A stretch of 64,000 bases of DNA from Chloroflexota bacterium (lineage in GTDB: Bacteria; Chloroflexota; Dehalococcoidia; UBA2247; RBG-13-53-26), in contig VGOM01000005.1 of the NCBI GenBank assembly GCA_016875915.1, positions 23,418 to 87,417 on the forward strand, given 5' to 3'. Position 1 is the stretch's first letter. Every line of letters begins with the position of its first letter. Under the pieces are notes generated by a model, which was not told where the DNA came from, made no database searches, and was given only the letters and a program-made list of their open reading frames with translations. The position numbers were made by a program, and so were the translations under genes. This document shows, in pieces, positions 13,480 through 54,163 of the stretch.

Positions 13480-13488
13480 GGGAGACCG

Positions 13489-14229: not shown

Positions 14230-14273
14230 GTGGGCTCATGCAAGTCAGTCCTTGATCTGACGAACCGGCGTCA

Positions 14274-15440: not shown

Positions 15441-15839
15441 TCTTCTTTCGTCAACTCCTTTCGGCATTCGTCGCGGCGGCCGAGACAAGCCGTCTGCGGG
15501 TTCTTCTGCAAACCCATCGACCATTATCCGGTTGTCCCTTCGGATACTCAAGTTGCGGGCTGCGGGGGCGAAACGCGCGGGGCACCCAGATTCCCCCATC
15601 AAGTGCGGCATGACACCTGCAGATCACAGACGCGCTTTGGCAAGGCCATCGGGTTGTGATATTATCCCAGCGGAAGACCCCGCATCCCGGTTTGGCTCCG
15701 TAGTCAGATGGAATACCCCAAGCGCCAGGTCATATCAGCCCCTTAGACTGCACAGAGAGTGTGAACCCAGTCTTGGAGAGCAGCTCGACGAATCCGTTTG
15801 GCGACCATTTGCCCCAGAACGGAAGCAAGGAGGAAGGAA

Positions 15840-16232: not shown

Positions 16233-16251
16233 GAACTGCCAGGAGGTTAGC

Positions 16252-16929: not shown

Positions 16930-16955
16930 GGCAGTACGGAGAAGGAGTGAGGACG

Positions 16956-17612: not shown

Positions 17613-17627
17613 ACGGGGGCGGCATAC

Positions 17628-19238: not shown

Positions 19239-19277
19239 ACCCCTGTGAGGGATAGCGCCGATACGGAGGTGTGGTAG

Positions 19278-20513: not shown

Positions 20514-21760
20514 CCATAGACAAGGCGTACATCGCTGGCGTGGGGATGATACGCTTCGGCAAGTATGCCGACAAGACGGTGCGTTCAATGGCGGAGGAGG
20601 CCATCCGGCTGGTGCTGCAGGACGCCGGATTGACGGCCGGCGACCTGCAGGCGGTGTTCTTCTCCAACACCTTCTGGGGCATGTTCTCCAATCAGCACTC
20701 CATCCGGGGGCAGGTCATCCTGCGGGGGATGAAGATCGACAAGATACCGGTGACCAATGTGGAGAACGCCTGCGCGGGAGGGGCGACGGCGCTGCACCTG
20801 GCCTACGCCAGCATACGGGCGGGCATGTTTGACGTGGCCATGGCCCTGGGCTCGGAGAAGATCAGCCATCCGGACAAGAACCTCTCGCTGGGAGCGTATG
20901 CCTCCTGCATGGATGTGGAGAACTTCCTGCAGCACATCAACATGATCATGGAAGTGAGCAAGACCTTCAAGGTGAAGATACCGGAGGACCAGACGGCTCC
21001 GGGGGAGGGCCGGAGCATCTTCATGGACGCCTACGCCACTGCGGCGCGGTGGCATATGGACCGGTTCGGGTCGACCCAGGATCAACTGGCGGTAGTCTGC
21101 TCCAAGAACCACTGGCACGGGTCTCTGAACCCGCTTTCTCAGTATCAGAATCCCATGACGGTCGAGGAGATACTGGCGGACAAGGCCATCGCCTATCCGC
21201 TGACCCGGGCGATGTGCGCGCCGGTGGGGGACGGGGCGGCGGCAGCCATAGTCTGCTCGGAGCGATTCCTCAAGAGGCTGAGCAGTCCCCGGCCGGTGAG
21301 GATACTGGCGTCGGTGCTGGGTCAGGGGGCAGACCGGGGACTGGACGACACCGACATCGGCGAGAGGCTGTCCAGGCAGGCCTATGAGATCGCCGGGCTG
21401 GGGCCGAAGGACATCGACACCGCAGAGTTGCATGACGCAACTGCTTTCGGGGAGCTGCATCAGACCGAGGCCATGGGATTCTGCCCGCTGGGGGAGGGCG
21501 GCCCCTACGCCTTGACTGGGGCGACGAAGCTGGGCGGGGCCAAGCCGATCAACACCAGCGGGGGGCTGGAATGCAGAGGGCATCCCATAGGGGCTTCGGG
21601 GCTGGCCCAGATCTATGAACTGGTGACGCAGCTCCGGGGTGAGGCCGGGGTCCGCCAGGTGGACGGGGCACGGATAGCGCTGGCGGAGAACGGGGGCGGC
21701 AATATCGGAGTGGAAGAGGCCGCCATGTGTATCCACGTGCTCGAAAAGAGCGGCCGGTAG
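20510..21760 (+). CDS. SCPx-type (lipid-transfer-protein, Ltp-like) thiolase
   Basis: Thiolase fold with NVENACAGGATAL active-site Cys and C-terminal GGG...NTSGGL; GTG start overlapping ACAD stop (GTGA... coupling). Confidence 0.75.
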   Translation, partial: VAIDKAYIAGVGMIRFGKYADKTVRSMAEEAIRLVLQDAGLTAGDLQAVFFSNTFWGMFSNQHSIRGQVILRGMKIDKIPVTNVENACAGGATALHLAYASIRAGMFDVAMALGSEKISHPDKNLSLGAYASCMDVENFLQHINMIMEVSKTFKVKIPEDQTAPGEGRSIFMDAYATAARWHMDRFGSTQDQLAVVCSKNHWHGSLNPLSQYQNPMTVEEILADKAIAYPLTRAMCAPVGDGAAAAIVCSERFLKRLSSPRPVRILASVLGQGADRGLDDTDIGERLSRQAYEIAGLGPKDIDTAELHDATAFGELHQTEAMGFCPLGEGGPYALTGATKLGGAKPINTSGGLECRGHPIGASGLAQIYELVTQLRGEAGVRQVDGARIALAENGGGNIGVEEAAMCIHVLEKSGR

Positions 21761-21867
21761 CACGCCGGAACGGGAGCCGCTGCCGGCACCCGGGCTCTGC
21801 GCCCACCGGGCAGAGAGGCTGAGGGGATGCCCTCCACGGAGATCTACCCAGTTCACCAATCCGGAGG

Positions 21868-22689
21868 TTGAGGGAATTGGCCAAGTACGACCTCACGGGG
21901 AGAACCGTGCTGATCACGGGCGCCTCAAGCGGCATAGGCAGGGAGCTGTCGAGGTGCTTTGCGGCCGAGGGCAGCAATCTGGTGCTGGGATGTCATCCAT
22001 CCGAGAAGGAGTCCCTGGAAGGGTTGATCGCTGAGCTGGCAGGCAGCCACGGGGTGAGGGTGTCAGGCTTGGCCATCGACCTTGCAGACAGCAGAGGACC
22101 GGAGGACTTCTACCATTCGGTCAGGCGGACTGCAGGCAGGATAGACGTGCTGGTCAACAATGCCGGAGTCCTGCACTACGGGTCTTTCGCGGACATACCT
22201 CTGGAGGATCACGAGCTGCTGGTCAAGCTGAATGTATTGGCATACTTGAAACTGATGCGGCTCTTCCTGGCGGACATGGTCAAGGCCGGGGAGGGCAGGA
22301 TACTCAACGTGGTGTCCGCGGCAGCCTTCCAGCCCACGGTGCACCATGCCACTTACGGGGCTTCCAAGGCATTCATGCAGAGTCTGAGCGAAGCGGTTGA
22401 CCAAGAGCTGAGAGGGACTGGTGTCAGGGTGTTCACCTTCAACCCTTCCTACACCAGGACGCCCCTCCTCAGCCGGGGAGGGTTTCCGGTCAAGATCTGG
22501 TGGTACAGGATCAGCGGTCTGAGCGATCCGGCCGACATGGCGCGACAGGCAGTGAGGGTCTTCAAGCAGGGAAAGCCGGTGTTCATCCCGGGGCTGAGGA
22601 ACTGGCTGGTGCATTCGATTCTGATCAGGCTGATGCCCAGAAGCCTGCTGAACGCCCTGGGCCGATGGGTATTGCGGGCCGAGGGCTGA
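21868..22689 (+). CDS. Short-chain dehydrogenase/reductase (SDR)
   Basis: TGASSGIG cofactor motif, YGASK catalytic motif; TTG start (alternative TTG at 21877). Confidence 0.8.
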   Translation: MRELAKYDLTGRTVLITGASSGIGRELSRCFAAEGSNLVLGCHPSEKESLEGLIAELAGSHGVRVSGLAIDLADSRGPEDFYHSVRRTAGRIDVLVNNAGVLHYGSFADIPLEDHELLVKLNVLAYLKLMRLFLADMVKAGEGRILNVVSAAAFQPTVHHATYGASKAFMQSLSEAVDQELRGTGVRVFTFNPSYTRTPLLSRGGFPVKIWWYRISGLSDPADMARQAVRVFKQGKPVFIPGLRNWLVHSILIRLMPRSLLNALGRWVLRAEG

Positions 22690-22715
22690 GATGGCCGCCC
22701 GGGTGCCCCCCGTCT

Positions 22716-23516
22716 TCAGCGGGTCTCGCCACGGAGGTCGTCCAGTTTCATGAAGCCGAAAGGCGCAAACTGGGCAGCGTCTGTTTCGGCCACGACGCTG
22801 CCGGGCAGCATGGAGTTGTCGCCCACAGTACGGACAGCGCCGAGGACGCGGACCACCTCGACGTCAGCCCAGGGATCGTGAGGCGAGGATTGCAGCTTCA
22901 GCGTGGCCTCGCCGAACTCCACGAGGCGGTGATTCATCCTGACTATCTCTCTGACTAGGCGTGGGTTGTAGTCGAAACCATTCCCTTGAGGGGCAGGGAA
23001 GTACTTGAAGTTGTAGACCAGTACATCGCTGGGAGACTGGAAACTCTGGGCGATGATGGTCTGGGCCATCTCGTCATTGCACTTGCCGGTGAGCTTGGCC
23101 TTGATCTCCAGGAAGCGCACCCCGTGTCTGGCCGTCCACCCTTCGATGCCCTTCCCTCGGCGGACTAGGTGAATATCGGCCATCTTCTTGGGGTAACCGT
23201 AGATCTCCCGGCCCAAGATGAGAGCGATGTCGTTGGTTACAGGCATGGACAGACAGTAGGAACCCTCCTCGCCGCCGAATTCGGCGCGCAGGAAGAGGGC
23301 GCTCTCCCTATAGGTAACGCCGAAATTGGTGCGGGGGTAGTTGGCCACAAAGACAAACCCGATGGGCAGCGCAGCCGGCTTGAGGGGTGGAGGGAGCAGG
23401 GCGTTCAGCGTCTTGGGCGTGGTCTCGAAGAAGACGGTGAGCATCTCCGCATCATGGAAGTCTCCGGTCTTCCAGGCGCCGGCGGCAAGTTCCTGTGCTG
23501 ACTTGACGAATCCCAT
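22716..23516 (-). CDS. Acetoacetate decarboxylase (ADC) family protein (possible hydratase-aldolase)
   Basis: ADC-fold hallmarks (ALFLRAEF, YGYPKK, beta-cone length ~266 aa); GGAGG SD before ATG 23516. Confidence 0.6.
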   Translation of the reverse strand: MGFVKSAQELAAGAWKTGDFHDAEMLTVFFETTPKTLNALLPPPLKPAALPIGFVFVANYPRTNFGVTYRESALFLRAEFGGEEGSYCLSMPVTNDIALILGREIYGYPKKMADIHLVRRGKGIEGWTARHGVRFLEIKAKLTGKCNDEMAQTIIAQSFQSPSDVLVYNFKYFPAPQGNGFDYNPRLVREIVRMNHRLVEFGEATLKLQSSPHDPWADVEVVRVLGAVRTVGDNSMLPGSVVAETDAAQFAPFGFMKLDDLRGETR

Positions 23517-23718
23517 AGCCAACCTCCCTAGCGGAATAGTCTCGACTGGAGCACCCAAGGTGTGCGAATCACAGCGGCCGACTGCACCCGGGACAGACCG
23601 TCCCGATTAGATCACACCAGTTGGCGGCAGTCAATGGGCGTGCGGCTGGCAGCAGCGTTCTGGCGCGGAGTCGGGACGGCCGGGTATACTGGTTCGTATC
23701 GCATCCTATGGGGGGACG

Positions 23719-31542: not shown

Positions 31543-32319
31543 CTACCCCCTTTCGCTTGCTTGGAGTCCGAAAAGGCGATGGGCGTTGTCGGTGGTCTTC
31601 CCGGCCACCGTCTCCGGCGGCAGGCCCTTGATCTCGGCCACGGCCAGCAGGACCCGGGCAACGTCGGCCGGCTCCGAGCGGTGCCCCTGATACGCCACGG
31701 GGCAGTCCGTTTCCAGGAGGAGGCTCTCCAGCGGGGCCTCCTTCACGGCCCGGCGATGCTCGGCGTGATACTCCACGGCCGGGGTGGCCGAGATGAAGTA
31801 GCCCCGGTCAATGATCTCCCTCAGCACGCTGGTCGGCCCGGTGTACCAGTGAAAGACGGCCTTGTCCACGCCGGCCCCGGAGGCCAGGGTGAAGGAATCC
31901 CGCCAGGCATAGCGGGAATGGATGATCGCCGGCTTGCCTGACCGCCGGGCCAGGGCCAGGACGGCGTTGAAGGCCCGGTGCTGCAGTTCTTTGCCGGCGG
32001 CAGCCACCACCCTCTTGTGATAGTCTAGGCCCACCTCGCCGACGGCCACGGCCTGCGGCAGGTGGTCTTCCATGAAACGAATACCCTCGCGCAGCGGCGT
32101 GGCATTGGTGAGCAGTCCGGGATGGAGGCCCAGCGCCGCATAGACGAAGCCCACGTGCGTCGCGGCCATCTCCAGCACCCTCCTGTTCGAGTCCGGGTCC
32201 GAGCCGACAGCCACTATGGCGGTCACCCCGGCCTCACCGGCCCTCTCCAGGGCCGCGGGCAGGTCCGGCAGTTCCTCCAGGTGGGCATGGGTGTCAACCA
32301 GTCTGTGGGCGGGGCTCAT
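31543..32319 (-). CDS. tatD: TatD family metal-dependent hydrolase
   Basis: N-terminal DTHAHL motif, TIM-barrel TatD signature; tightly coupled to downstream racemase gene. Confidence 0.8.
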   Translation of the reverse strand: MSPAHRLVDTHAHLEELPDLPAALERAGEAGVTAIVAVGSDPDSNRRVLEMAATHVGFVYAALGLHPGLLTNATPLREGIRFMEDHLPQAVAVGEVGLDYHKRVVAAAGKELQHRAFNAVLALARRSGKPAIIHSRYAWRDSFTLASGAGVDKAVFHWYTGPTSVLREIIDRGYFISATPAVEYHAEHRRAVKEAPLESLLLETDCPVAYQGHRSEPADVARVLLAVAEIKGLPPETVAGKTTDNAHRLFGLQASERG

Positions 32320-33074
32320 TGGCCGAGGATGTGCCCTTCGACAATGGCGCGCACCGCGGCCGGTCCCGGGGAGGCAGCGGGCAGCTCCGTGATGGGTCGG
32401 CCGATGAGGTCGAACTGGCCGATGGCCTCATCCTGGGGAACAACTCCCAGAACCTCAATGCCGATCTCACCGGCGGACCGCCGGAGCAGGTCCTCGTTGC
32501 CCTGGACCCGGTTGAACACCAGGCCCAGCTTGTCACAGCGGATCACCCCATCATCCCGGACCATCTTCTTGATCAGGGCCGCGGTCTGCAGCCCCCGGGT
32601 GGTGGCGTCGCTGACCACGATCAGGACATCCAGGTGGCGGACCACCTGCCGGTTGATCTGCTCCACGCCGGCTTCGCCGTCGATGATGATGCTGTCAAAG
32701 CTCCTGGAGAGGGTCTCGATGGCCCCCCGGAGCAGGTCGTTCACCGGACAGAAGCAGCCCAGGGTTTCGGTGCGGCCCATGGCCAGCAGGGCGAAACTGT
32801 CCGTCTCCACCAGTGCCTCCAGGACCATGTAGTCCAGCATCTCCCCGAGCTGGGCCTTCTCCTCCTGGCTGCCGCTCCGGGCCGTCTTGATGATCTCCTC
32901 ACGGACCTGGCCCATGGTCCGCTTCACCCGCACCCCGACGGCTCCGGGCAGGCCCAGCGCGGGATCGGCATCGATCAGCAGCAGCCGTCCGGCCCGGCCG
33001 CCGTCCAGCAGGGCCCGGGTCATCATGGCCGTGAAGGCCGTCTTGCCGGTGCCTCCCTTGCCGGAGACGGCCAC
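32316..33074 (-). CDS. P-loop ATPase, CooC/MinD/ParA-like (deviant Walker A); start uncertain
   Basis: VAVSGKGGTGKT deviant Walker A; no in-frame ATG; GTG at 33074 (AAGAGG SD) or TTG at 33128. Confidence 0.6.
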   Translation of the reverse strand: MAVSGKGGTGKTAFTAMMTRALLDGGRAGRLLLIDADPALGLPGAVGVRVKRTMGQVREEIIKTARSGSQEEKAQLGEMLDYMVLEALVETDSFALLAMGRTETLGCFCPVNDLLRGAIETLSRSFDSIIIDGEAGVEQINRQVVRHLDVLIVVSDATTRGLQTAALIKKMVRDDGVIRCDKLGLVFNRVQGNEDLLRRSAGEIGIEVLGVVPQDEAIGQFDLIGRPITELPAASPGPAAVRAIVEGHILGQ

Positions 33075-33102
33075 CAGCCTCTTCTTCGGGGGCGCCGCCT
33101 TC

Positions 33103-33894
33103 TCAGCCAGCGGACGCCTCCGGGGCAACGTCCTTCTGTTTGCGGATCTTGATGACCTCCTTGATCTCATCGCACACCGGTTCATCGGGGCAGGTCCGGC
33201 AGTCCCCCCCGTAGCTGCAGACGTAGGCATCGAAGCCCCGGGCCTTCCAGTCGGCGGCCAGCAGGCTCTTGTAGATCTTCCGCACCTGAGCGCCGATGTC
33301 GTCCAGCGGCCCCAGGTCCTCCCGGCTCGAGGTGACGAAGAGGATCTCCATGGCCTCCACCTTGGGGACTTCCTGCTTGAAGACGGCCATGAGGGCCCGG
33401 CCCAGTGTCTCGAAACCGAAGCCCCTCTGGGCGACATCACGGCTGACCCTGGACCAGATGAGCTGGGAGGTGCTCCGGATCATGTATCCCTCTATCCGGT
33501 CGGCCACAAACTGGGTGTGCTCCAGCGTCTGATGATCCTTCTCTGTCAGCTGTGGTCCGGCCATGATCAGCACCTGACCGAAGGGCAGGCTGGCCCCCGG
33601 CGACTCGGGGATATCGGGGCCGATGAGGGTGATCCGGCCTTCTCTGACCAGGGCGGGATTGTCCGTCCAGAACAGGAAGGCGCAGGAGCCGGCGTCGGGG
33701 TTGCCCATCTCGGCGAAGGTGTCGCCCCGGAGGATGATGCCCGGGTTGGCCCCCGGGCCGACCCTGACCGGCAATCCGTCGAGGAGCCGGTCCACCCCCG
33801 GCGGGCAGTCCATCTCCCGGATCGGCCTGCCCTTCCGGCGGAGATCGGCCACATACGCGGCGATCTTGGTCAGATAGGCATCATAGATAGCCAT
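33103..33894 (-). CDS. Hypothetical protein with C-terminal Cys cluster (CSYGGDCRTCPDEPVC)
   Basis: 263-aa ORF with good coding appearance, C-x7-C-x2-C-x5-C motif at C-terminus; no family recognised. Confidence 0.5.
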   Translation of the reverse strand: MAIYDAYLTKIAAYVADLRRKGRPIREMDCPPGVDRLLDGLPVRVGPGANPGIILRGDTFAEMGNPDAGSCAFLFWTDNPALVREGRITLIGPDIPESPGASLPFGQVLIMAGPQLTEKDHQTLEHTQFVADRIEGYMIRSTSQLIWSRVSRDVAQRGFGFETLGRALMAVFKQEVPKVEAMEILFVTSSREDLGPLDDIGAQVRKIYKSLLAADWKARGFDAYVCSYGGDCRTCPDEPVCDEIKEVIKIRKQKDVAPEASAG

Positions 33895-33999
33895 AGCGGT
33901 GGTTTACCAGCTGTCGGAAAGGATGACCCTTCGACAACTCAGGGGATTCCCTCCCCGGCAGGCGAAGGGTCTCTCCGGGAAACGTCCTCTCTTGCCGGC

Positions 34000-34821
34000 C
34001 TAGCTGTGGGACTTGGCCGCCACGGAGTCCACCTGGGCCTTCTGGGCCACCTTCTCGGCGGCGATCACCGCCGCACCCACCGCCCCGGCGATCTGGGGAT
34101 CCATGGGCAGCTTCTTGATCTTCACCTTCAGCCGCTGCTCCAGGGCTTTGGCCAGGGTCTCATTCTTGGCACAGCCTCCGGTGAGGACGACGTCCTCCAC
34201 CAGTCCCACCCGGCCCACCATGCCGCTCAATCTGCCGGCCACCGAGTTGTTCAGGCCGGCAATAATATCGGCCAGATCGACATCCTCGTTGATCAGGGTG
34301 ATCACCTCGGATTCGGCGAAGACGCTGCACTGGCTGCTGATCACCGCCGGCTTCCGGGCGTCCAGTCCCAGTGTAGAGAGTTGCTCCAGGCTGATATGGA
34401 GCGTGCGGGCCATGGCCTCATAGAACTTGCCCGTCCCCGCGGCGCACTTGTCGTTCATGACGAACTCCAGGACCTTGCCCTTCTCGGTGACGGACATCAC
34501 CTTGCAGTCCTGTCCGCCGATATCGACCACCGTCCTCACCGTCGGGAGCAGCCACTGCGCCCCCCTGGCATGGCAGGTGATCTCCGAGATGTTCTCGTTG
34601 GCAAAGTCGACCTTCAGCCGGCCATAGCCCGTGCCCACGACATAGTCCAGGTCCTCCAGTTTGGACAGCCCGGCCTTCTGCAGTGCCTCATCCATGGCCT
34701 TCCGCGCCGTCACGTCAGGCTTGACGGCGGAAGGGGTGATTGAGAATGAGACAACCTGTCCATCCTTCATGACCACCGCCTTACCGGTGGCGGAACCTAT
34801 GTCGCAGCCTCCAACGATCAT
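34000..34821 (-). CDS. CoA-substrate-specific enzyme activase (HgdC/BadF/BadG/BcrA/BcrD ATPase family), module A
   Basis: ASKHA fold; bridging-cluster cysteines in NDKCAAGTGKF and SSQCSVFAESEV; ATG 34821 with GGAGAAG SD. Confidence 0.8.
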   Translation of the reverse strand: MIVGGCDIGSATGKAVVMKDGQVVSFSITPSAVKPDVTARKAMDEALQKAGLSKLEDLDYVVGTGYGRLKVDFANENISEITCHARGAQWLLPTVRTVVDIGGQDCKVMSVTEKGKVLEFVMNDKCAAGTGKFYEAMARTLHISLEQLSTLGLDARKPAVISSQCSVFAESEVITLINEDVDLADIIAGLNNSVAGRLSGMVGRVGLVEDVVLTGGCAKNETLAKALEQRLKVKIKKLPMDPQIAGAVGAAVIAAEKVAQKAQVDSVAAKSHS

Positions 34822-34875
34822 GGCTTCTCCTCGCTCGGTCATTTCACGCAATGGTGAGCCGTGCCTTCTCTCCGG

Positions 34876-36195
34876 CTAGCCCAAGCCCATCGCGCCAAAG
34901 AACTTGCTCAGCTTGTCCTTGCACTCCTCCGGGGTGGTATACCTCCTGTCAAAGAGGTCAAGCCCAATGTGTAGGTAGGGCACCTTCAGCTCGTTGCAGA
35001 TCTCCCTCATGATGCCGGTGCTGGCCGAGCCGTCCTTGTGGCCCATATGCCCCGGCCAGATGACGCAATCCACCTTGTAGTCCTTGACCACCCGGGCGAT
35101 GTCGCTGGCAAAGTAGTCCGCGATGCCCCGGGCCTGCCTGACCATGGGCGACTCGTAGAGGTTCCTCTTGGCCAGACCCTTGAATATGGTGTCCTCATTC
35201 CGAGTATCCACCGGGGTATAGGGGGTGAAGCCGAACATCTCCATGACCATCACGGCTCCCCATTCCTGCTCCAGCCAGGGCATGAGCTCGAAGCACCATC
35301 CGAAGGGCAGCAGGTCAAACCAGAAGTACCTGATCTTCTCCTTGGGTATAACCCCCCGGCCCTCCTTCACCTTCTTCTCCGTGATGCTGACCAGCCGCCG
35401 GAACCAGTCGGTGCCTCTGGGCTGACCCACCTGGAAGATCTGAGACACGGCGAAGCACTGCGGACCGCCCATGCCCCACCCCTGAGGGCAGGGCACAGCC
35501 CGCCGCAACTGGGCGTACTCCGCCCAGAGCTCGTACTGCTTGTTGGACTCCTTGACCACCTCGCGCAGCCTGTCCAGATCCAGCTTCCGGCCGGTGTTCT
35601 CCTCGATGAAGGCGACCATCTTCTTCAGCTCGTTGGCGAAGTAGTCGATGCCCCTCTGATCCTCAAAGTAGGGTGGGTCGGTGCAGAACATGGGAATACC
35701 GCGCCACTTCTCATTGCGGACCACGGCCTGGTGGAGCATGGTGGCCGCATCGCAGGGATGCAGCAATCCGATCATGCAGGTGGGCGGCGGCGACAGCCCG
35801 GCCTCGATGTAGTACAGCGACAGCCGGCAGGCGGTGCACCAGTCGGTGCCCAGTCCCATGGCCTCGGCGGCATCAACGTCCTCCATCAGATAGGGTGCCG
35901 AGGCAGCCAGGAAGGGGGTCTGCATGATGAGGTACCACGGCAGGTCCATGGCCGTGTAGACCTCCGGGGCGGCATTGAAGTAGCCGGCCACGAAGGGCTT
36001 GTCCTCCTCCGCGCAGCGGATGATGGTGTCGTAGCGGTCCACGGTGATATCGGTGACCTCTTTGCTGAGCTGCATCTCCTCATCGGGCATCAGGGCCAGC
36101 GTGTCGCTCAGGAACTTGAAGAAGTCGCGCTCCTTCCGGTAGCGCTCCAATCCCTTCACCATCAGGGCTCTTCTAGTCTCCTTGTCCATAGCCAT
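34876..36195 (-). CDS. 2-hydroxyacyl-CoA dehydratase / benzoyl-CoA reductase B/C-like subunit (HGD-D family), module A, HgdB-like
   Basis: HGD-D family Cys-containing segments; paralogous to 38796..40070; ATG 36195 with GGGGAGG SD. Confidence 0.75.
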   Translation of the reverse strand: MAMDKETRRALMVKGLERYRKERDFFKFLSDTLALMPDEEMQLSKEVTDITVDRYDTIIRCAEEDKPFVAGYFNAAPEVYTAMDLPWYLIMQTPFLAASAPYLMEDVDAAEAMGLGTDWCTACRLSLYYIEAGLSPPPTCMIGLLHPCDAATMLHQAVVRNEKWRGIPMFCTDPPYFEDQRGIDYFANELKKMVAFIEENTGRKLDLDRLREVVKESNKQYELWAEYAQLRRAVPCPQGWGMGGPQCFAVSQIFQVGQPRGTDWFRRLVSITEKKVKEGRGVIPKEKIRYFWFDLLPFGWCFELMPWLEQEWGAVMVMEMFGFTPYTPVDTRNEDTIFKGLAKRNLYESPMVRQARGIADYFASDIARVVKDYKVDCVIWPGHMGHKDGSASTGIMREICNELKVPYLHIGLDLFDRRYTTPEECKDKLSKFFGAMGLG

Positions 36196-36200
36196 ACTGC

Positions 36201-37349
36201 CTACCTCCCCATCATTTCCAGGAAAGCCTGGACCCGCGTTCTCAACTGCCCAGCACCGATGTTGACGTAGTCCCTGTCCAGCCTGATGTAGGGAATGCCG
36301 GCCTCCTTCAGGTCTTCGCCGGTCATGAACTGCTCGCCCGTCCAGTTGTCGCACATCACCAGACGCTCGGCGATGACCCCATCGACATCGAACTGACGGA
36401 TCATCTCCTTGATGAAGGCCGATCTCCGGGGCTGGTCCCCGAATATCCGGGCACACTGGGGACGGTCATAGAGGTAGTACTGCGCCAGAGCCGTGAATGG
36501 GTCGCCCGCCTTCTCGTCCACCTCCCCCCACATGTTGCGGGTGCCGAAGCAGAGTGAATCGGTGACCACCAGGGCGCCCTGGCTCTCGATCACTTCGATG
36601 TAGGCCGGGTCGTCCAGGATACCGCCGATGAGCATGATCCTGGCCCGATGGTCGGCGTGCCCATCCTTGGACTGACTCAGCTCGTCCACCAGCTCCTTGA
36701 GGAGACCGTTGTAGTACTCCGGCGGCATGGCCGTGCCGGCCACCATCACCGCCAGTGTTTCAGCGCCGGTGATCGGGGGGTTTTTCCGCTTCTTCAACTC
36801 GTAGAGCTGTCTCTGGAGACGGCGGGTCTGGTTGTGGAGCTTGATAGCATCCCACAGCCGATCATCGGAGATCCACACGCCGAAATGGGGTCCCATGCTC
36901 TCCCTGAGGAAGCGAATCTCATCCCGGTACCAGTCGATCTGAGCCTGCTCGTTCTTCTTGGGCAGAGCCAGCAGCCGCAGATATGAGGTATCTATCTTCC
37001 GCTTCCAGTGATCGTAGATGCGGCGGACGTGGTCGCAGCTGTTGACCCAGAGGACGCCATCGAGGAAGCTGTACTCGCCCCTCAGGCCCAGGTCAAGCGA
37101 GTGGCGGACGAAGCTGCAATTGATGCTGCTGACACAGGTATCCGCCAGGTCTGTGCCGGTGCTGCCCGTGCCCCGCATTCGGAAGGGCACAAAGCCCGCG
37201 GCCGTGATCACTTCCACCGGCACGTAGGAGCAGTAGCAGCCGATGACCCGACCCCCCTGATCCTTCCACTTCTGCAACGCCGGATTGACTAGGCACTGGG
37301 TGGCTTCCTGGAACTCCTGCAAGGCCCGGGACTTGATCTTGGTCGCCAA
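36201..37349 (-). CDS. 2-hydroxyacyl-CoA dehydratase / BcrB/BadD-like subunit (HGD-D family), module A, HgdA-like
   Basis: N-terminal GCYCSYVPVEV and C-terminal GQLRTRVQAFLEMMGR shared with paralog 37645..38799. Confidence 0.75.
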   Translation of the reverse strand: MATKIKSRALQEFQEATQCLVNPALQKWKDQGGRVIGCYCSYVPVEVITAAGFVPFRMRGTGSTGTDLADTCVSSINCSFVRHSLDLGLRGEYSFLDGVLWVNSCDHVRRIYDHWKRKIDTSYLRLLALPKKNEQAQIDWYRDEIRFLRESMGPHFGVWISDDRLWDAIKLHNQTRRLQRQLYELKKRKNPPITGAETLAVMVAGTAMPPEYYNGLLKELVDELSQSKDGHADHRARIMLIGGILDDPAYIEVIESQGALVVTDSLCFGTRNMWGEVDEKAGDPFTALAQYYLYDRPQCARIFGDQPRRSAFIKEMIRQFDVDGVIAERLVMCDNWTGEQFMTGEDLKEAGIPYIRLDRDYVNIGAGQLRTRVQAFLEMMGR

Positions 37350-37547: not shown

Positions 37548-37644
37548 CACCGCAATTTGTTACGATGTACGGCTGTGTGCCTCTTCCGATCGGGGCAGGG
37601 CAACCGAGGATGATAGTGTCAATCGGACTTGGTGAGGGAGTGAC

Positions 37645-38799
37645 ATAGCCAGTACCCTGGAAACGCTGCGCGAAATCCGGGCAGTCAACTCCTCTTTCCC
37701 TTGCCCTGATCCCGTCAGATCCTGGAAAGAGCAGGGGAAGAGGGTCATCGCCTTCCAGTGCACCTATGTCCCTGAGGAGGTCGTTCACGCCGCCGGCATA
37801 CTCCCCATCAGGCTGACCGGCGATTCCGAAGAGCCCTCCCTGGAGGAAGCCAATGCCTATATGTACATCAACACCTGCTCGTTCGTCCGGGGCTGCCTCG
37901 ACCTGGTCCTGAAGAAACGCTATCAGTTCCTGGACGGCTTCGTGTCCGGGTCGACCTGCGACTGCCCCCGTCGCCTGACCGATGTGTGGCAGCACTACGA
38001 TTTCACTCCCTTTGTGTACATCCTGGATGTGCCCCGCAAGATGACCCAGGCAGCTCATGCCCTCTACCGGGAGGAGGTGCAGGGACTGAAGAAGCGGATC
38101 GAGGAGTCCTTCGGCCTGCATATCTCCGATGAGGCACTGCGCCGTTCAATCGAGACGTACAACCGCACCAGAACGCTGCTGAAGAAGCTCTATGAGCTGC
38201 GCAAGTCCGACTGCCCCCCGGTCACCGGGGCCGAGGTCCTGGAGGTCCTGGATGCCGGCTTCAAGATGCCCAGGGAGGAGTTCAACAGGGTTCTGGAGAG
38301 ATTGGTCGATGAAGCCGGCAAGGGAGAGAGAACGGTGCCGGCAAGGTTCCGGTTGATGATCAGCGGCAGCCCGCTGAACAACCCGGAGTTCATCCGGGGC
38401 ATCGAGGAACTCGGGGGGCTGGTGGTCGTGGACGAGCTGTGCACCGGGGTCCGTCACTGGTGGGACCTGGTGGACGAGAGCCCCGGCGTCGATCCCGTGG
38501 AGGCCCTCTCCCGCCGCTATCTGAACAACTTCCCCTGCCCGCGGATGTATCCGCCGGAGGAGCGGTTCGACAGGGCGGTGCAACTGGTCAGGGAATACCG
38601 TGTTGACGGGGTGATCAGCGAGGTGGTGCGCTACTGCGTCCATTGTGCCCATGATCAGCCCCTGCTGAAGCGGACCCTGGAGGGAGAGGGCGTCCCGGTG
38701 CTGGAGCTGAGCCTGGAGTACGGAGCTTCCGGAACAGGCCAGATACGGACCCGGGTGCAGGCCTTTCTGGAGATGCTGGAGGCCAGGTCAGGGAGATGA
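37645..38799 (+). CDS. HgdA/BcrB/BadD-like subunit (HGD-D family), module B; non-canonical start
   Basis: Frame opens after TGA at 37633-35; no ATG/GTG/TTG before conserved N-terminus; ATA at 37645 sits 4 nt after GAGGGAG SD where ATG is expected (ATA GCC AGT ACC CTG ~ M A S T L). Confidence 0.65.
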   Translation: MASTLETLREIRAVNSSFPCPDPVRSWKEQGKRVIAFQCTYVPEEVVHAAGILPIRLTGDSEEPSLEEANAYMYINTCSFVRGCLDLVLKKRYQFLDGFVSGSTCDCPRRLTDVWQHYDFTPFVYILDVPRKMTQAAHALYREEVQGLKKRIEESFGLHISDEALRRSIETYNRTRTLLKKLYELRKSDCPPVTGAEVLEVLDAGFKMPREEFNRVLERLVDEAGKGERTVPARFRLMISGSPLNNPEFIRGIEELGGLVVVDELCTGVRHWWDLVDESPGVDPVEALSRRYLNNFPCPRMYPPEERFDRAVQLVREYRVDGVISEVVRYCVHCAHDQPLLKRTLEGEGVPVLELSLEYGASGTGQIRTRVQAFLEMLEARSGR

Positions 38800-40070
38800 C
38801 CACGACCGTCGCCGATACCGCCAAGCTGCGGCAGATTGTGGAAGTGGTGGATGCGGTGGCCAAGCTGCAGAGGCAGCGCCTGGAACGGGAGCCCGACGCC
38901 GTCAACTACCAGATCGTGGTCCGCTATTTCAACAACGTGCTCACAGCCAAAGAGGAAGGCAAGCTGGTCGTGGCCCACACTCCCATGATTGCCCCGGAGA
39001 TCCTCTTTGCCATGGATATCGTTCCCCTCCAGCTCGAGTTCGCCGCTACCCTGGCGGCGCAGATCATCCCGGGGATTCAGGAATGCTTCAGCACCGCGGC
39101 GACGGCCGGGCTGGCCCCGGAGATTTGCTCCGCTCAGAGACTCATCGCCGGACAGGCCATCCAGAGGTGGCTGCCCCGGCCCGACGCCCTGATCTGGAGC
39201 AACCAGGTCTGTGACAACACCGCCAAAGGCGGCAATCTCCTGGCTGAGGTCTTCGACTGCCCCAGCTTCTTCCTGGACCGCCCCTATCAGTTCTCAGAGA
39301 GGGGAGTGCACTACTTCACGGAGCAACTGAAGGAGCTCATCCGTTTCCTGGAGAACCTCACCGGCCGGAGGATGGACTGGGACCGATTCTCTGAGGTGAT
39401 GGAATACTCCCGCCGCCTGCAGGACCTGCACCGGGAGATCCGGGAGTTGCGCAAGGCCGTGCCCTGTCCCTGGCGCAACCTGTGGTTCATACACATGCAG
39501 GGCACTGAGATGTATTGGGCCGGGAGCCCGGAGGCCATCGCCCACCTGGAGGCCATAAGGGACGCCGCCAGGCAGAAGGTCACCGAGGGCAAAGGGTATG
39601 TCCCCGTTGAGAGATTCCGCATCCTGACCATCTTCGTCCCCCCGACATCCGGCTGGGCAATGATGGGCTGGATGCAGGGCAAGCACGGGGCCGTCTGCGT
39701 CGCCGAGCCCTATTTCTCATTCCGGGATGGGGAGGCCATCGACCCGGCCAAACCCCTGCAGAGCCTGGCCCGGAAGTGCTTCTACTGCCCCATCTGCGGT
39801 CCCATGCACGGGCCGGCCAGCGAAGGGATTGTCCGCGATACGGTGCGAGATGCTGTAGACTACAAGGCGGAAGGGGCGGTGTGTTTTGCCAGCATCGGCT
39901 GCCGGCAGACAGACGCTTGCATCAGAATGCTCAAGGAGTCTCTGCAGGAGAAAGCGGGCATCCCCATGCTGGTCCTGGACAATGACACCTACGACCCCAC
40001 CTACGTACCGGAGGATCAACTGAGGGACAAGCTGGACGAGTTCTTCGAGTTGCTGGAGGGGCGGAAGTAG
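38796..40070 (+). CDS. HgdB/BcrC/BadE-like subunit (HGD-D family), module B
   Basis: ATGA overlap with upstream gene; AGGGAG SD; paralog of 34876..36195. Confidence 0.75.
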   Translation: MTTTVADTAKLRQIVEVVDAVAKLQRQRLEREPDAVNYQIVVRYFNNVLTAKEEGKLVVAHTPMIAPEILFAMDIVPLQLEFAATLAAQIIPGIQECFSTAATAGLAPEICSAQRLIAGQAIQRWLPRPDALIWSNQVCDNTAKGGNLLAEVFDCPSFFLDRPYQFSERGVHYFTEQLKELIRFLENLTGRRMDWDRFSEVMEYSRRLQDLHREIRELRKAVPCPWRNLWFIHMQGTEMYWAGSPEAIAHLEAIRDAARQKVTEGKGYVPVERFRILTIFVPPTSGWAMMGWMQGKHGAVCVAEPYFSFRDGEAIDPAKPLQSLARKCFYCPICGPMHGPASEGIVRDTVRDAVDYKAEGAVCFASIGCRQTDACIRMLKESLQEKAGIPMLVLDNDTYDPTYVPEDQLRDKLDEFFELLEGRK

Positions 40071-40116
40071 TCCGGGTCCAGTTTCCGGGGATCATGGCCA
40101 TCATCGAGGTTGAGCT

Positions 40117-40902
40117 ATGTTCGTGGCCGGCATTGACATAGGATCGAGAGGCTCCAAGGCAGTGATAATGGAGGACAGCCAGTTGGTGTCCTTCAGCATC
40201 TGCGAGACAGGGCCCGAGAGCACCAAGTCAGCGCAGTCCACCATCGACCAGGCCCTCGAAGGCACCGGGCTTACACTTGAAGACGTCGAGTACGTCGTGG
40301 CCACCGGCTACGGCAGGATTCTGGTGCCGTTTGCCAAGGCCAACGTATCCGAGATCTCTTGCCACGCCAGGGGGGCTCACTGGTATTTCCCCTCGGTGAG
40401 GACCATCCTGGACATGGGCGGGCAGGACTGCAAGGCCATCAACTGCGATGAGAAGGGCCGGGTGACCAACTTCATCATGAACGACAAGTGCGCCGGCGGC
40501 ACGGGGAGGTTCCTGGAGGTGATCGCCGACGTGCTCCAGGTCCCCCTGGATGAGATCGGCCACCTGTCACTGCAGTCAACACAGAGCGTGGCCTTCAGCA
40601 CGGTCTGCGCCGTCTTCGCCAAGTCCGAAGCCCTGGCCCTGGCCAGAAGCGGCGTCCCCAAGAGCGATATCCTGGCCGGGCTTCACGACGCCATCGCCGT
40701 GCGCTGCCTCAACCTGCTCAGAAGGGTGGTGCTGGACAAGGATTTCACCGTCACCGGGGGCATCTCCAAGAACGCCGGCATGGTGGACAAGATCCGGAAG
40801 AAGGTGGGGCTGGAGCCCGTTCTGGCCCCGGACCCCCAGATCATCGGCGCCCTGGGCGCCGCCCTCTACGCTCAGGAGAAGGCTCAGGGGCAGATGAATT
40901 GA
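40117..40902 (+). CDS. BadF/BadG/BcrA/BcrD-type ATPase (activase) 1, module B
   Basis: MFVAGIDIGSRGSKAV ASKHA N-terminus; NDKCAGGTGRF and STVCAVFAKSEA cluster-binding cysteines. Confidence 0.8.
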   Translation: MFVAGIDIGSRGSKAVIMEDSQLVSFSICETGPESTKSAQSTIDQALEGTGLTLEDVEYVVATGYGRILVPFAKANVSEISCHARGAHWYFPSVRTILDMGGQDCKAINCDEKGRVTNFIMNDKCAGGTGRFLEVIADVLQVPLDEIGHLSLQSTQSVAFSTVCAVFAKSEALALARSGVPKSDILAGLHDAIAVRCLNLLRRVVLDKDFTVTGGISKNAGMVDKIRKKVGLEPVLAPDPQIIGALGAALYAQEKAQGQMN

Positions 40903-40909
40903 AGGGCGA

Positions 40910-41746
40910 ATGCCATCATCGCCGGCAGCACTCCGGCCCGGACCGGCAGGCCTAGCGGTGCTCTACGCCGGTCTGGATATGGGCAACCTGACCACCAAGG
41001 CAGTCATCCTGAAGGATGAGCAGATCCTGTCTCAGGCAATGGTCAACTCGGTGGAGGACGGGGAGTCCCGGGCCAGGACGGCCCTGGACATGGCCCTGGA
41101 AGGCACCGGCTTCGGCACCGGCGATATTGCCTGCATCGTGGCCACGGGGGCGGGAAGGAAGGCCATCTCCCTGGCTCAGAAGCAGAGGGCGCCTAGCTCC
41201 TGCCTGGCCAGGGGCATCAGCCGTCTCCTTCCATCGGTCCGGACCCTCATCGACGTGGGGGCGGAGACCTGCACCGTGGTCCGGGTCAACGACAGGGGAG
41301 TGGCGGATGACTCCATCGGCAACGAGCGATGCGCCTCGGGCACAGGGGTCTTTCTGGAGACCATGGCCAAGCTGATGCAGATGCCCCTGGAGGAAATGGC
41401 CAGGGCGTCCATGCTGGCCGAGGACAAGGCCGAGATCACCAATATGTGCGCCGTCTTCGCCGAGCAGGAGGTCATCTCCCACGTTCATCGCGACCCTCCA
41501 ACGCCGAAGAATGATATCATTGCCGGCATACACGCTTCCATGGCCACACAGGTGGGCGGACTGGCCAAGAGAATGGGCATCAAGACTGACGTGGCCCTCA
41601 CCGGGGGTGTGGCCAGGAACGCCGGCTTCGTGTCTGCCCTGCAGGAGAACCTGGGCGTGGTCCTGATGGTCCCCGACAGGCCGGAGTTCGTGGCAGCCCT
41701 GGGGGCAGCCTGCGCCGCCCGCGACGAAGCCTGTCGTTCCGCCTGA
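40910..41746 (+). CDS. BadF/BadG/BcrA/BcrD-type ATPase (activase) 2, module B (divergent second ATPase subunit)
   Basis: GLDMGNLTTKAV, NERCASGTGVF, TNMCAVFAEQEV; clearly distinct from ATPase 1, consistent with a heterodimeric BcrA/BcrD-like pair. Confidence 0.75.
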   Translation: MPSSPAALRPGPAGLAVLYAGLDMGNLTTKAVILKDEQILSQAMVNSVEDGESRARTALDMALEGTGFGTGDIACIVATGAGRKAISLAQKQRAPSSCLARGISRLLPSVRTLIDVGAETCTVVRVNDRGVADDSIGNERCASGTGVFLETMAKLMQMPLEEMARASMLAEDKAEITNMCAVFAEQEVISHVHRDPPTPKNDIIAGIHASMATQVGGLAKRMGIKTDVALTGGVARNAGFVSALQENLGVVLMVPDRPEFVAALGAACAARDEACRSA

Positions 41747-52126: not shown

Positions 52127-54163
52127 GTGGCAGTGAACAACCTCAACCAGGCAGACCGGGTCCTTGTGATCGCCAGCGCGCGGGACCTGGTGGATATGAT
52201 CAAGGAAGGAGCCGGCGGCAATCTCGAAGTCACCTACGCCGCCAATCAGAAAGAGGGGCTGGAGAAGGCCAGGAAGGATCTGCCCGCCATCATCGTTCTG
52301 GGCTACCTGGAGCCGCAGGGCACCGCCTTCCAGCTCCATCGCAAGCTGCAGGAGGGATGGATCACCAAGAACATCCCTCTTCTGATAGTCGATCTGCAGT
52401 CGGACGACTCCCGCCCCGTGTTGAGCATGGAGGAGGGTCTGCAAATGGAGGCCGACGAGTATCTCGCCCTCCGTCGAGGGGACGGGCAGGTGTCCCTGAC
52501 CCGGCTGGCCGAGCCCATCGCCAGACTGAGGGAGAAGCTCCACACCAGACTGAAGACCACGGCGAACATCGTCAGGGAGGCTATCCTCGACCCGAACACC
52601 TTCTGCGTCACCTGGGAACAGGTCCCCGGCCGGGGAGCCTTCGAAATGCAGCAGGAGGAACTGGTCGAGAACGCCAGGAGGGCTGCCCGGAAGGGTAAGA
52701 TCCATGCCGTGAGCGTCACCGACAACCCCGGCGGGAATCCGGCCATCTCCACCGAGATACTGTGCACCGAGGTGCGGAAACTGGGCATCGAGCCGCTGGT
52801 GCACCTCGCCTTCAGGGACAAGAACAGGAATGAGTGCGAGAGCATCCTCTACGGCCTCGCCGGCCTTGGCGTGAGGAATCTGCTGCTGCTCACAGGCGAC
52901 TACCCTTCAAGCGGCGGGTTCAAGGGCAGATCCAAGCCGGTGTTCGACTTGGACTCCGTCCATGGCCTGCAGCTGGTGCAGATGATGAACAACGGAATGG
53001 AACATGAGGCCATGGGCAAGAAGACCACCCTGGCCCCCACCGACTTCTTCGCCGGCACATCTGTCTCGCCCTTCAAGCAGTCAGAGGCCGAGTTGATGGG
53101 ACAGTACTTCAAGCTGAAGAAGAAGATCGAATCCGGCGCCGACTTCGTGATCACCCAGCTTGGCTATGACGCCAGGAAGCTCCATGAGGTGCTCACCTGG
53201 CTCAAGGTCCACGGCTACAGCACGCCGGTGATGTCCAACATCTATGTGCTGCCTCTGGGGGCGGCCAAGATCATGAACACCAATCAGATCCCGGGCTGCG
53301 TGGTCACCGACAAGCTGCTGGAAGAGGTGGCACAAGAGGCCAAAGCCCCGGACAGGGGCAGGTCCGCCAGGCTCACCCGGGCGGCCAAGATGTACGCCGT
53401 GGCCAAGGGCATGGGATGTGCCGGAGCCCACATCGGGGGCCATGGCCTGACATACGAGGCGGTGGAGGAGATCATCGGCAAGGGCGAGGAGATGGCCAAG
53501 GACTGGAGGACTCTGGTCGCCCAGTTCGACTACCCGCAGAGAGACGGCTTCTATTACTTCGAGAGGGACCCCCAGACGGGGCTGAACCTGGAGACCCCGG
53601 CAGCCAGGCCGTCAAGAGGCTCACGTACGCCCATCTACGAGTTCTCCAGGCTGGCCCACGTCACCCTCTTCAATCCCAAGAGCGTGGTGTTCAAGGGGTT
53701 CAGGCCGGTGGCCAGGCGGCTCGATTCCTCGTCGACTCTGGAGTCGGCCTTCGGCTTCTTCGAGCACCTGACCAAGGTGGCCCTCTTCGGTTGCATGAAC
53801 TGCGGCGATTGCTCCCTGTTCGACGTCGCCTTCCTCTGCCCCATGTCTCAATGCCCCAAGAACCAGAGAAACGGGCCCTGCGGGGGCAGCTACGAAGGAT
53901 GGTGCGAGGTCCACACGGACAAGAAGTGCGTCTGGGTGCGCGCCTATGAGAGGCTGAAGAAGCACAAGGAAGAGGAGGAGATCGGGGACAACTGCGTTCC
54001 TCCCTGCAACTGGGAACTGATGGGCACCCCGTCCTGGCTCAATTTCTACCTGGGCAGGGATCACTCGGCCAAGAGGCTGGGGATACAACCGCCTCAAGAG
54101 AAGGCGAAGCCCGCCGAGAGCGACAAGGCCAAGGAGGCCAAGGAGACCAAGAAGGCAGCATAG
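52127..54163 (+). CDS. metF: Methylenetetrahydrofolate reductase fused to N-terminal pseudo-receiver domain and C-terminal MetV-like Cys-rich (zinc-ribbon) domain
   Basis: Residues ~1-130 REC-like fold lacking acceptor Asp (IIVLGYLEP); central MTHFR TIM barrel; C-terminal FGCMNCGDCSLFDVAFLCPMSQCPKNQRNGPCGG; GTG start (alt GTG 52133). Confidence 0.75.
   Translation: MAVNNLNQADRVLVIASARDLVDMIKEGAGGNLEVTYAANQKEGLEKARKDLPAIIVLGYLEPQGTAFQLHRKLQEGWITKNIPLLIVDLQSDDSRPVLSMEEGLQMEADEYLALRRGDGQVSLTRLAEPIARLREKLHTRLKTTANIVREAILDPNTFCVTWEQVPGRGAFEMQQEELVENARRAARKGKIHAVSVTDNPGGNPAISTEILCTEVRKLGIEPLVHLAFRDKNRNECESILYGLAGLGVRNLLLLTGDYPSSGGFKGRSKPVFDLDSVHGLQLVQMMNNGMEHEAMGKKTTLAPTDFFAGTSVSPFKQSEAELMGQYFKLKKKIESGADFVITQLGYDARKLHEVLTWLKVHGYSTPVMSNIYVLPLGAAKIMNTNQIPGCVVTDKLLEEVAQEAKAPDRGRSARLTRAAKMYAVAKGMGCAGAHIGGHGLTYEAVEEIIGKGEEMAKDWRTLVAQFDYPQRDGFYYFERDPQTGLNLETPAARPSRGSRTPIYEFSRLAHVTLFNPKSVVFKGFRPVARRLDSSSTLESAFGFFEHLTKVALFGCMNCGDCSLFDVAFLCPMSQCPKNQRNGPCGGSYEGWCEVHTDKKCVWVRAYERLKKHKEEEEIGDNCVPPCNWELMGTPSWLNFYLGRDHSAKRLGIQPPQEKAKPAESDKAKEAKETKKAA

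Follow-up and report, generated by a model that had tools for sequence, protein, structure and literature searches.

A four-gene module from a Chloroflexota bacterium shares the predicted cofactor plan of benzoyl-CoA reductase but not its substrate pocket

The genes analyzed here occupy positions 37645 to 41746 of a 64,000-nucleotide (nt) stretch of contig VGOM01000005.1 (assembly GCA_016875915.1, Chloroflexota bacterium), referred to below as the window (GC content, ~63%). A first-pass annotation made from the sequence alone had described this region as a four-gene module resembling ATP-dependent aryl-CoA reductases, and all four open reading frames (ORFs) were indeed found at the coordinates it gave, co-directional and on the + strand. 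When the profile search that it had proposed was run with Pfam, two HGD-D (PF06050) and two BcrAD_BadFG (PF01869) proteins were recovered. The first gene, A1 (37645-38799, 384 amino acids [aa]), encodes a BzdN/BcrC/HadC-type subunit with a full-length HGD-D match (2e-100, positions 1-342 of 342), and the second, B1 (38796-40070, 424 aa), encodes a BzdO/BcrB/HadB-type catalytic subunit (HGD-D, 1.1e-56). These assignments reverse the labels used previously, in which gene 1 was HgdA-like and gene 2 was HgdB-like; gene 1 is of the HgdB type and gene 2 is of the HgdA type. Two ASKHA ATPase genes follow, namely, the BzdQ/MbdQ-like T1 (40117-40902, 261 aa; BcrAD_BadFG, 7.3e-62) and the more divergent T2 (40910-41746; BcrAD_BadFG, 8.3e-40).

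The reported ATGA overlap between A1 and B1 is visible in the sequence at 38796-38799, and B1 and T1 are separated by 46 nt. The 7-nt gap described between the ATPase genes can likewise be read as TGA-AGGGCGA-ATG at 40900-40912, although this reading depends on T2 starting at ATG 40910 (giving 278 aa). Relatives that are >90% identical to T2 are called at 262 aa from a GTG equivalent to 40958, and T2 may begin at this GTG (262 aa) instead. A scan of the module for promoters and terminators found nothing above shuffled expectation. The matching proteins are deposited at NCBI as MBM4444236 and MBM4444238-240 (from a "Chloroflexi bacterium" metagenome-assembled genome [MAG]); a Lake Tanganyika metagenome contig (JGI 3300020083) matches the window at 99-100% protein identity for every gene compared, and an Anaerolineae MAG supplies a member of the >90% cluster.

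The start codon of A1 is unusual. Codon 37645-37647 is ATA rather than ATG, GTG, or TTG, and none of these three codons occurs ahead of Met73; the upstream frame is closed by an in-frame TGA (37633-37635, + strand), and a Shine-Dalgarno-like GAGGGAG (37634-37640, + strand) precedes the ATA with a 4-nt spacer. The first-pass annotation had nevertheless placed the start correctly at 37645, since Met1 of A1 homologues aligns exactly with this codon, the ATA is shared by a 78%-identical relative in Chloroflexi bacterium RBG_13_53_26 (L004, 9989-10003; L numbers denote loci of relatives), the pattern of differences by codon position is informative, and the cluster ligand Cys39 lies upstream of Met73. 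In the 72 codons before Met73, A1 and L004 differ at 10 first, 4 second, and 34 third positions, a pattern that shows coding constraint on this segment; in another relative, L005, the homologous start codon is ATG. The in-frame candidate starts nearest the opening of the ORF (ATA 37645, CTG 37654, and CTG 37663) all precede Cys39. A pseudogene reading of this ATG-less gene was ruled out by the codon-position pattern together with the conserved ATA. The ORF lister begins the gene at Met73 (37861, 312 aa), as does the gene call from JGI, so the ATA start has caused gene callers to cut A1 by 72 residues and to remove Cys39.

Among solved structures, A1 matched BzdN best (32% identity, 174 bits), followed by DCCP (30%), HadC (28%), and MbdN (27%). 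BzdN holds an [8Fe-9S] double cubane on six cysteines (PMC11971306). The A1 cysteines Cys39, Cys78, Cys105, Cys266, Cys298, and Cys331 align with the ligands of BzdN and DCCP, and none of them varies among 51 family members. Two arginines, Arg56 and Arg270, correspond to Arg53 and Arg267 of BzdN. HadC lacks two and MbdN lacks three of the six cysteines that A1 keeps, and among the solved relatives compared, the full set was shared only with BzdN and DCCP, both of which are reductases. A1 is thus predicted to be an [8Fe-9S] double-cubane carrier that stores and transfers electrons. The best NCBIfam model for A1 was double_cubane (NF040772), at 254.7 bits against a cut-off of 350; the BzdN (167 versus 453.8), BcrC (157 versus 421), and HadC (163 versus 700) cut-offs were also missed. 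In bootstrapped trees, A1 and its relatives formed a clade in 92 of 100 replicates and paired with BzdN in 1 and with HadC in none.

B1 was only 21 to 24% identical to MbdO, BzdO, DCCP, and HadB (24% each for BzdO and MbdO). Its AlphaFold (AF2) model (pLDDT of 88.5) superimposed in Foldseek on HadB, MbdO, and BzdO with TM scores of 0.80 to 0.81, compared with 0.70 for N/beta-type chains, and the best match was HadB (TM, 0.81/0.86); judged by its modeled fold, B1 belongs to the catalytic alpha/O type. In BzdO, a [4Fe-4S]-OH2 cluster is held by Cys95, Cys128, and Cys380, and Glu65 and His131 are catalytic (PMC11971306). Cys111, Cys139, and Cys369 of B1 align with these three cysteines and are invariant in the family, and Glu81, which aligns with BzdO Glu65 and HadB Glu55, is present in all but one of 51 family members. 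Equivalents of A1 Cys39, Cys266, and Cys298 are lacking in B1, which is predicted to hold a [4Fe-4S] cluster with one open iron site beside a substrate pocket.

The pocket itself differs from that of BzdO, in which Trp46, Tyr97, Leu302, and Leu383 pack against the benzoyl ring (PMC11971306). His131, Trp46, Tyr97, and Leu383 of BzdO are replaced in B1 by Thr142, Met64, Ala113, and Thr372, such that neither the benzoyl pocket nor the proton relay is conserved at the four positions compared (Leu302, Tyr298, and Gln274 were left out owing to unreliable alignment). Thus, the cofactor plan predicted from the aligned ligands agrees with BzdNO, whereas the pocket departs from it. The NCBIfam scores of B1 were far below the cut-offs for HadB (80 versus 750, the best match), BzdO (56 versus 448.6), BcrB (65 versus 487), and double_cubane (61.7 versus 350). 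The B1 clade was recovered in 87 of 100 bootstraps and paired with BzdO in 4 and with HadB in none.

Both ATPases carry the two cluster cysteines that had been attributed to them, which align with HgdC Cys127 and Cys166. In T1, these cysteines sit in NDKCAGGTGRF and TVCAVFAKSE, and the nucleotide loops are canonical; its best solved match was MbdQ (46% identity, 240 bits), and its best NCBIfam match was BzdQ (265 bits; cut-off, 380.2). ATPase scores for BcrA (187 versus 578) and BcrD (138 versus 313) were similarly below the equivalog cut-offs. T2 matched HadI best among solved proteins (40%; MbdP, 31%), and its DMGNLTTK and DVGAETC replace the DxGS(T)xxK and DxGGQ(D/T) found in all five solved relatives. 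Conservation of the G-A-E-(S/T) motif, and of an HRxPPTP insert, extends across 36 orthologues of T2. The small size of the two ATPases, which had been said to set the module apart, is usual for the Bzd/Mbd type (the MbdQ and MbdP chains are 269 and 273 aa long).

T1 and T2 are 34% identical to each other, and in neighbor-joining trees whose reference set contained no BzdP or BcrD sequences, each was monophyletic in 100 of 100 bootstraps, with no replicate recovering an exclusive T1-T2 pair or joining T2 to MbdP. Given this identity, the fully supported clades, and the retention of both genes in ~40 of 51 loci, T1 and T2 are old, co-inherited paralogues. The identity and the bootstraps rule out a recent duplication, and the absence of any T2-MbdP grouping, together with their 31% identity, argues against T2 as a BzdP/MbdP orthologue.

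With two HGD-D subunits and BcrAD_BadFG ATPases bearing two cluster cysteines apiece, the module has the features of the benzoyl-CoA reductase/2-hydroxyacyl-CoA dehydratase (BCR/HAD) superfamily. The first-pass annotation had favored a class I BCR build over that of HgdCAB, and the six-cysteine A1 and the old ATPase pair support this choice with stronger evidence than was then at hand. The cluster ligands are conserved, the ATPases are not recent duplicates of one activator, and neither A1 nor B1 grouped with its HAD counterpart; the outcomes that the first-pass annotation had named as fatal to its proposal were thus not observed. The term "aryl-CoA reductase," in contrast, was an overstatement, given that the ring-pocket residues and His131 of BzdO are not conserved and that all four proteins fell well short of the NCBIfam equivalog cut-offs for BCR, HAD, and DCCP. 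The suggestion that the system may be new was also too generous as to kind: members of this clade are already labeled as BCR in public databases, and there are reports of class I BCR or bzdNOPQ-like gene sets, possibly of another clade, in Chloroflexi (PMC5736913, PMC7673041). Systems of this kind are therefore known, and what is new in the clade is the distinct catalytic subunit, the peculiar second ATPase, and the operon contexts.

To place the module among its relatives, one genome per species was scanned with A1, yielding at least 577 relatives, and the best 79 loci were examined. Nearly all of these 79 came from MAGs of uncultured Dehalococcoidia or other Chloroflexota, with single MAGs of Methylomirabilia, Nitrospinae, and Clostridia. 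The B1 family comprised 232 representatives (50%-identity clusters) at an E value of ≤1e-30, and among the roughly one-quarter of matches that bear names, none was from a cultured organism. Clade members are publicly labeled "benzoyl-CoA reductase subunit B/C" by JGI and 2-hydroxyacyl-CoA dehydratase by NCBI. Of the 51 loci with an A1-type gene, ~40 encode the full set of A, B, T2-like, and T1-like proteins, and most of the others are truncated at a contig boundary, but several kilobases of downstream sequence without adjacent ATPase genes are present in at least L005, L017, and L046 (and L084/L085). The T2-like gene precedes the T1-like gene in most loci. This order is reversed in the window and in L004 and, as far as gene order can indicate for two untyped ATPases, in L083.

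In 32 of 38 relatives, the T1-like ORF runs without a stop into a C-terminal ferredoxin domain of ~95 aa with eight cysteines (Pfam Fer4/Fer4_7), as in L023 (13269-14336) and L011 (13228-14295) among L007 to L052, although T1 of the window has no such domain. This fusion ruled out a separate ferredoxin gene behind the ATPases of the relatives. An rpmF gene was sought in the gap before plsX of the relatives and was not found, the stretch in question being the ferredoxin domain.

The Dehalococcoidales loci share a further arrangement, in which the module stands on one strand in the order SDR-DegV-A-B-T2-T1(ferredoxin)-(MaoC-MaoC)-PlsX-ACP-SDR-KAS-SDR-DegV-FakA, where SDR is a FabG-like short-chain dehydrogenase/reductase, ACP is an acyl carrier protein, and KAS is a FabF-like ketoacyl-ACP synthase (e.g., L011, L014, L023, L026, L028, L036, and L040). 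The distance from the ATPase stop codon to PlsX, MaoC2, or FakA was -4 to +125 nt in 18 Dehalococcoidales loci. Judging from this arrangement, the Dehalococcoidales module appears to lie within one operon for fatty-acid and phospholipid (membrane-lipid) genes. Such neighbors are absent from the window, L004, the Methylomirabilia, Nitrospinae, and Clostridia loci, and other relatives. L083 is instead flanked by an old yellow enzyme (OYE)-like reductase and Hdr-like proteins. In L086 (7443-15263), a 47%-identical B1 relative has UbiD and phenylphosphate-carboxylase gamma (Phenyl_P_gamma) as neighbors, along with two NifH/CbiA-like ATPases and a pair of nitrogenase-like Oxidored_nitro proteins; TetR regulators and additional HGD-D genes lie on the flanks. 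Elsewhere, relatives stand beside genes for a family III CoA-transferase, an enoyl-CoA hydratase, a Liv transporter, TetR, and a protein resembling ADP-forming acyl-CoA synthetases (read from sequence, without a profile). Genes for handling CoA esters recur beside relatives in unrelated lineages.

Based on these observations, we consider the odds slightly better than even that the module encodes an ATP- and ferredoxin-driven reductase with a Bzd-type cofactor plan, belonging to a separate branch of the BCR/HAD radical enzymes and acting on a thioester. T1 and T2 would form a heterodimer around one bridging [4Fe-4S] cluster to which each chain contributes two cysteines. Reduced ferredoxin would load this cluster, and ATP binding and hydrolysis would push the electron uphill into the [8Fe-9S] cluster of A1, a double cubane that could store more than one electron. 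A1 would then hand the electrons to B1, where the fourth iron of a [4Fe-4S] cluster on three cysteines may carry water or substrate beside Glu81, and where a bound acyl-thioester (in the likeliest case, an ester of CoA) would undergo a net low-potential reduction. Benzoyl-CoA itself is probably not the substrate, because the pocket residues are substituted, no equivalog threshold was reached, and pathway genes are missing, as described below.

We infer a net reduction rather than a dehydration from three features, namely, the six-cysteine double cubane, the conservation of two different ATPases, and, in relatives, the fused ferredoxin domain. Among the solved or characterized systems compared, two ATPases were found only in net reductases (Bcr/Bzd/Mbd and the activation domains of PlsA and Ger), and the fusion in 32 of 38 relatives would build the electron input into the enzyme. 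The order of the HGD-D genes, gamma-like and then beta-like, is also that of bzdNO and thnBC. The proposed enzyme as a whole is further supported by the alpha/O-type fold of the B1 model and by the CoA-handling genes found repeatedly beside relatives.

Several points weigh against this interpretation, and no single one of the three arguments for net reduction is decisive. The six-cysteine motif is not required of reductases, since MbdN, a true reductase subunit, lacks three of the cysteines. HAD activators also need ferredoxin, and the ferredoxin fusion is therefore not decisive either; moreover, T1 of the window lacks the domain, and no homologue of it is encoded in the 64 kb. None of the proteins reached an equivalog threshold, and B1 is equidistant from BzdO, MbdO, HadB, and DCCP, with HadB marginally best in both fold and NCBIfam comparisons. 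Finally, the altered phosphate loops of T2 make its ATPase activity uncertain.

Comparison with described systems shows where the likeness ends. BzdNOPQ of Aromatoleum sp. CIB (8S02, 8S1T, and 8S2R) has the same six-cysteine N-type and three-cysteine/Glu O-type subunits, encoded in the same N-then-O order, and two different short ASKHA ATPases with two cluster cysteines each. The catalytic subunit of the module, however, is only 24% identical to BzdO, its second ATPase did not group with MbdP of the P/delta type, and no bzd pathway or ferredoxin gene lies nearby. MbdONPQ of Thauera chlorobenzoica (9G87 and 9GAI) is likewise a four-subunit ATP-dependent reductase, and MbdO, like B1, lacks an equivalent of His131; however, MbdN lacks three double-cubane cysteines, identities are low (27% for A1-MbdN and 24% for B1-MbdO), and T2 stands apart from MbdP. 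DCCP and its reductase DCCP-R (Carboxydothermus hydrogenoformans; 6ENO and 7YYL) share the six cysteine ligands with A1 and ATP-driven electron delivery with the module, but DCCP is a homodimer served by a homodimeric ATPase, whereas B1 has lost the ligands of the second cubane and the ATPases here are two paralogues.

The thn operon for tetrahydronaphthoyl-CoA reduction encodes, in order, the gamma and beta subunits, an alpha-ATPase, a delta-ATPase, a ferredoxin, an oxidoreductase, and two MaoC proteins (PMC12016498). The ThnBCDE subunit order (N47/NaphS2) is that of the window, a likeness by gene order only, and the thnF ferredoxin and thnH/I MaoC pair recall the ferredoxin domain and MaoC pair of the Dehalococcoidales loci; OYE-type reductases also lie nearby, as in L083 (PMC12016498). 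The window module, on the other hand, is not flanked by thn-like beta-oxidation genes.

Automated pipelines would have this clade be a genuine benzoyl-CoA, or closely related aryl-CoA, dearomatizing reductase, and the Bzd-like architecture, the gene order shared with bzdNO and thnBCDE, and the JGI labels all accord with that assignment. One of the class I BCR sets reported from Chloroflexi adjoins Hdr genes (PMC5736913), as L083 adjoins Hdr-like and OYE-like proteins, and UbiD and Phenyl_P_gamma stand next to the module in L086. An acyl-CoA ligase and an acyl-CoA dehydrogenase that weakly match benzoate-CoA ligase and cyclohexane-1-carbonyl-CoA dehydrogenase are also encoded ~20 kb away in the window. 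Yet none of the window ORFs that were scanned exceeded the cut-off of a benzoate-CoA ligase model (144 against 375) or was recognized as Dch, Had, or Oah/BamA, the one enoyl-CoA hydratase found being generic. The equivalog cut-offs were missed widely, B1 shares only 24% identity with BzdO and has Met, Ala, Thr, and Thr in place of Trp46, Tyr97, His131, and Leu383, A1 and B1 almost never grouped with BzdN and BzdO, and in Dehalococcoidales the module sits in a lipid operon. We therefore regard this assignment as unlikely.

The Dehalococcoidales operon could be taken to mean that no member of the clade is an aromatic-ring reductase and that the enzyme is an ATP- and ferredoxin-driven reductase of membrane-lipid synthesis in Dehalococcoidia, the window copy being a paralogue that has diverged toward a related, though not identical, acyl substrate. 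We think this improbable as a statement about the whole clade, and we are quite doubtful of the related proposal that the clade acts on acyl-lipids, acyl-ACP, or acyl-phosphate as a split-gene functional analogue of PlsA/PlsR and Ger. The one-strand operon with DegV, PlsX, ACP, and KAS and its tight spacing in 18 loci speak for such a role, as does the nature of PlsA and Ger. Both are reductive members of the BCR/HAD family that carry two distinct ATPase domains and use the sn-1 ester as the group to be reduced (PMC13159169, PMC12838417), and both are lipid-linked, like the Dehalococcoidales relatives. The association is nonetheless confined to one order, so that its instances are not phylogenetically independent, and it is absent from the window and from the relatives outside Dehalococcoidales listed above. 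PlsA/PlsR and Ger are also fused multidomain proteins with DUF2229 (PF09989), fragmentary HGD-D, and a BBDHDDH pattern (PMC13159169), whereas Pfam found no PF09989 match in the module, its genes are separate, and its HGD-D domains are full length; orthology to PlsA/PlsR or Ger was ruled out on this domain architecture. In addition, B1 of the window is only ~40% identical to Dehalococcoidales B1 and, at conserved pocket positions, has Gln114 and Gln371 where the latter have His. A lipid-linked function is thus a serious possibility for the Dehalococcoidales subclade but a weaker one for the window copy, which has no ferredoxin fusion, no lipid neighbors, and Gln for His at both positions.

A 2-hydroxyacyl-CoA-dehydratase-type enzyme that catalyzes a redox-neutral radical dehydration with a heterodimeric activator would fit the NCBI protein names, the superfamily and fold shared with HadBC/HadI and HgdAB/HgdC, the HadB matches of B1 in NCBIfam and Foldseek with the Glu55 equivalent kept, and the HadI match of T2, but is very doubtful, since A1 has all six cysteines and HadC does not, two conserved and different ATPases replace the single homodimeric activator with its catalytic electron recycling, the beta subunits of HadBC and HgdAB hold [4Fe-5S] rather than [8Fe-9S] clusters, neither A1 nor B1 showed clade affinity to HadC or HadB or approached their cut-offs, and no amino-acid fermentation genes (CoA-transferase/2-hydroxyacid dehydrogenase pairs) lie beside the module. 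Of these interpretations, we continue to favor the thioester-acting reductase.

Immediately upstream of A1, on the - strand, lies a divergent paralogous BCR/HAD-type module of five genes (32316-37349) that the first-pass annotation had missed. Its A2 (36201-37349) is 39% identical to A1 and keeps the six double-cubane cysteines. B2 (34876-36195) is 28% identical to B1 and has Ile for the catalytic Glu and His for the third cluster Cys. They are followed by T3 (34000-34821), a single ATPase that matches HadI/HgdC at ~40%, a 263-aa protein resembling the middle domain of acetyl-CoA synthase (ACS) (33103-33894; only ACS residues 318-472 are covered, and the C terminus carries CX6CX2CX5C), and a CooC-like ATPase with GKGGTGKT and CFC motifs (32316-33128). 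TatD and a racemase follow the A2-B2-T3 module. The set of A2, B2, T3, CdhC-like, and CooC-like genes occurs without an A1 module in L062, L067, L069, and L081; L070 and L077 have it minus the CooC-like gene, and in L076 and L079 the same genes occur with the ATPase first. Variants from Desulfobacterales and Thermodesulfobacteriota MAGs (L059, L063, L066, L068, L071, L072, and L074) encode two different T3-like ATPases. To our knowledge, no described system has this composition.

Downstream of T2 are genes for a metallo-beta-lactamase (MBL)-fold hydrolase on the same strand, a hybrid-cluster protein, MscL, the enoyl-CoA hydratase mentioned above, and an OadA-like carboxylase. A cluster of genes for CoA metabolism and radical enzymes (6242-23558) lies 14 to 30 kb upstream of the module and includes a PFL2-3-type glycyl radical enzyme (7851-10361), a KstD-like flavoprotein (10645-12372, - strand; 698 bits versus a cut-off of 789), and a family III CoA-transferase (14274-15611, - strand). 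It also encodes a CrtO/CrtI-like FAD oxidoreductase, an ABC-2 transporter, two DUF2148 ferredoxin-domain proteins, an acyl-CoA ligase, an acyl-CoA dehydrogenase, a thiolase-like protein, an SDR, and a protein of the acetoacetate-decarboxylase family. The glycyl radical enzyme and the CoA-transferase had raised the prospect of a fumarate-addition hydrocarbon pathway, which was rejected on finding that the enzyme is of the PFL2-3 dehydratase type, with no BssA/AssA-type NCBIfam match. A 678-aa ORF at 52127-54163 combines methylenetetrahydrofolate reductase (MTHFR) with an MTHFR C-terminal (MetV-like, DUF5981) domain and, together with the ACS-like and CooC-like genes, hints at an organism of the Wood-Ljungdahl type. 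Rfam and tRNA scans of the window gave no matches.

As far as the alignments and gene neighborhoods indicate, the clade shares the Bzd-type cofactor plan but neither the substrate pocket nor the pathway context. It offers two natural variants for the study of ATP-electron coupling in a heterodimeric activator, namely, T2, in which a conserved G-A-E-(S/T) replaces G-G-Q-(D/T), and the ferredoxin-fused Q-type ATPase of relatives. Class I BCR genes of Chloroflexi, possibly of another clade, have been used to argue that abundant subsurface Chloroflexota degrade aromatic compounds. BCR annotations based on the present clade would need revision if its substrate is not an aryl-CoA, and if the membrane-lipid reading is true, the "benzoyl-CoA reductase" labels on this clade in Chloroflexota are misassigned. 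A substrate other than aryl-CoA would also add a new reaction to the short list of ATP-driven reductions below the potential of ferredoxin.

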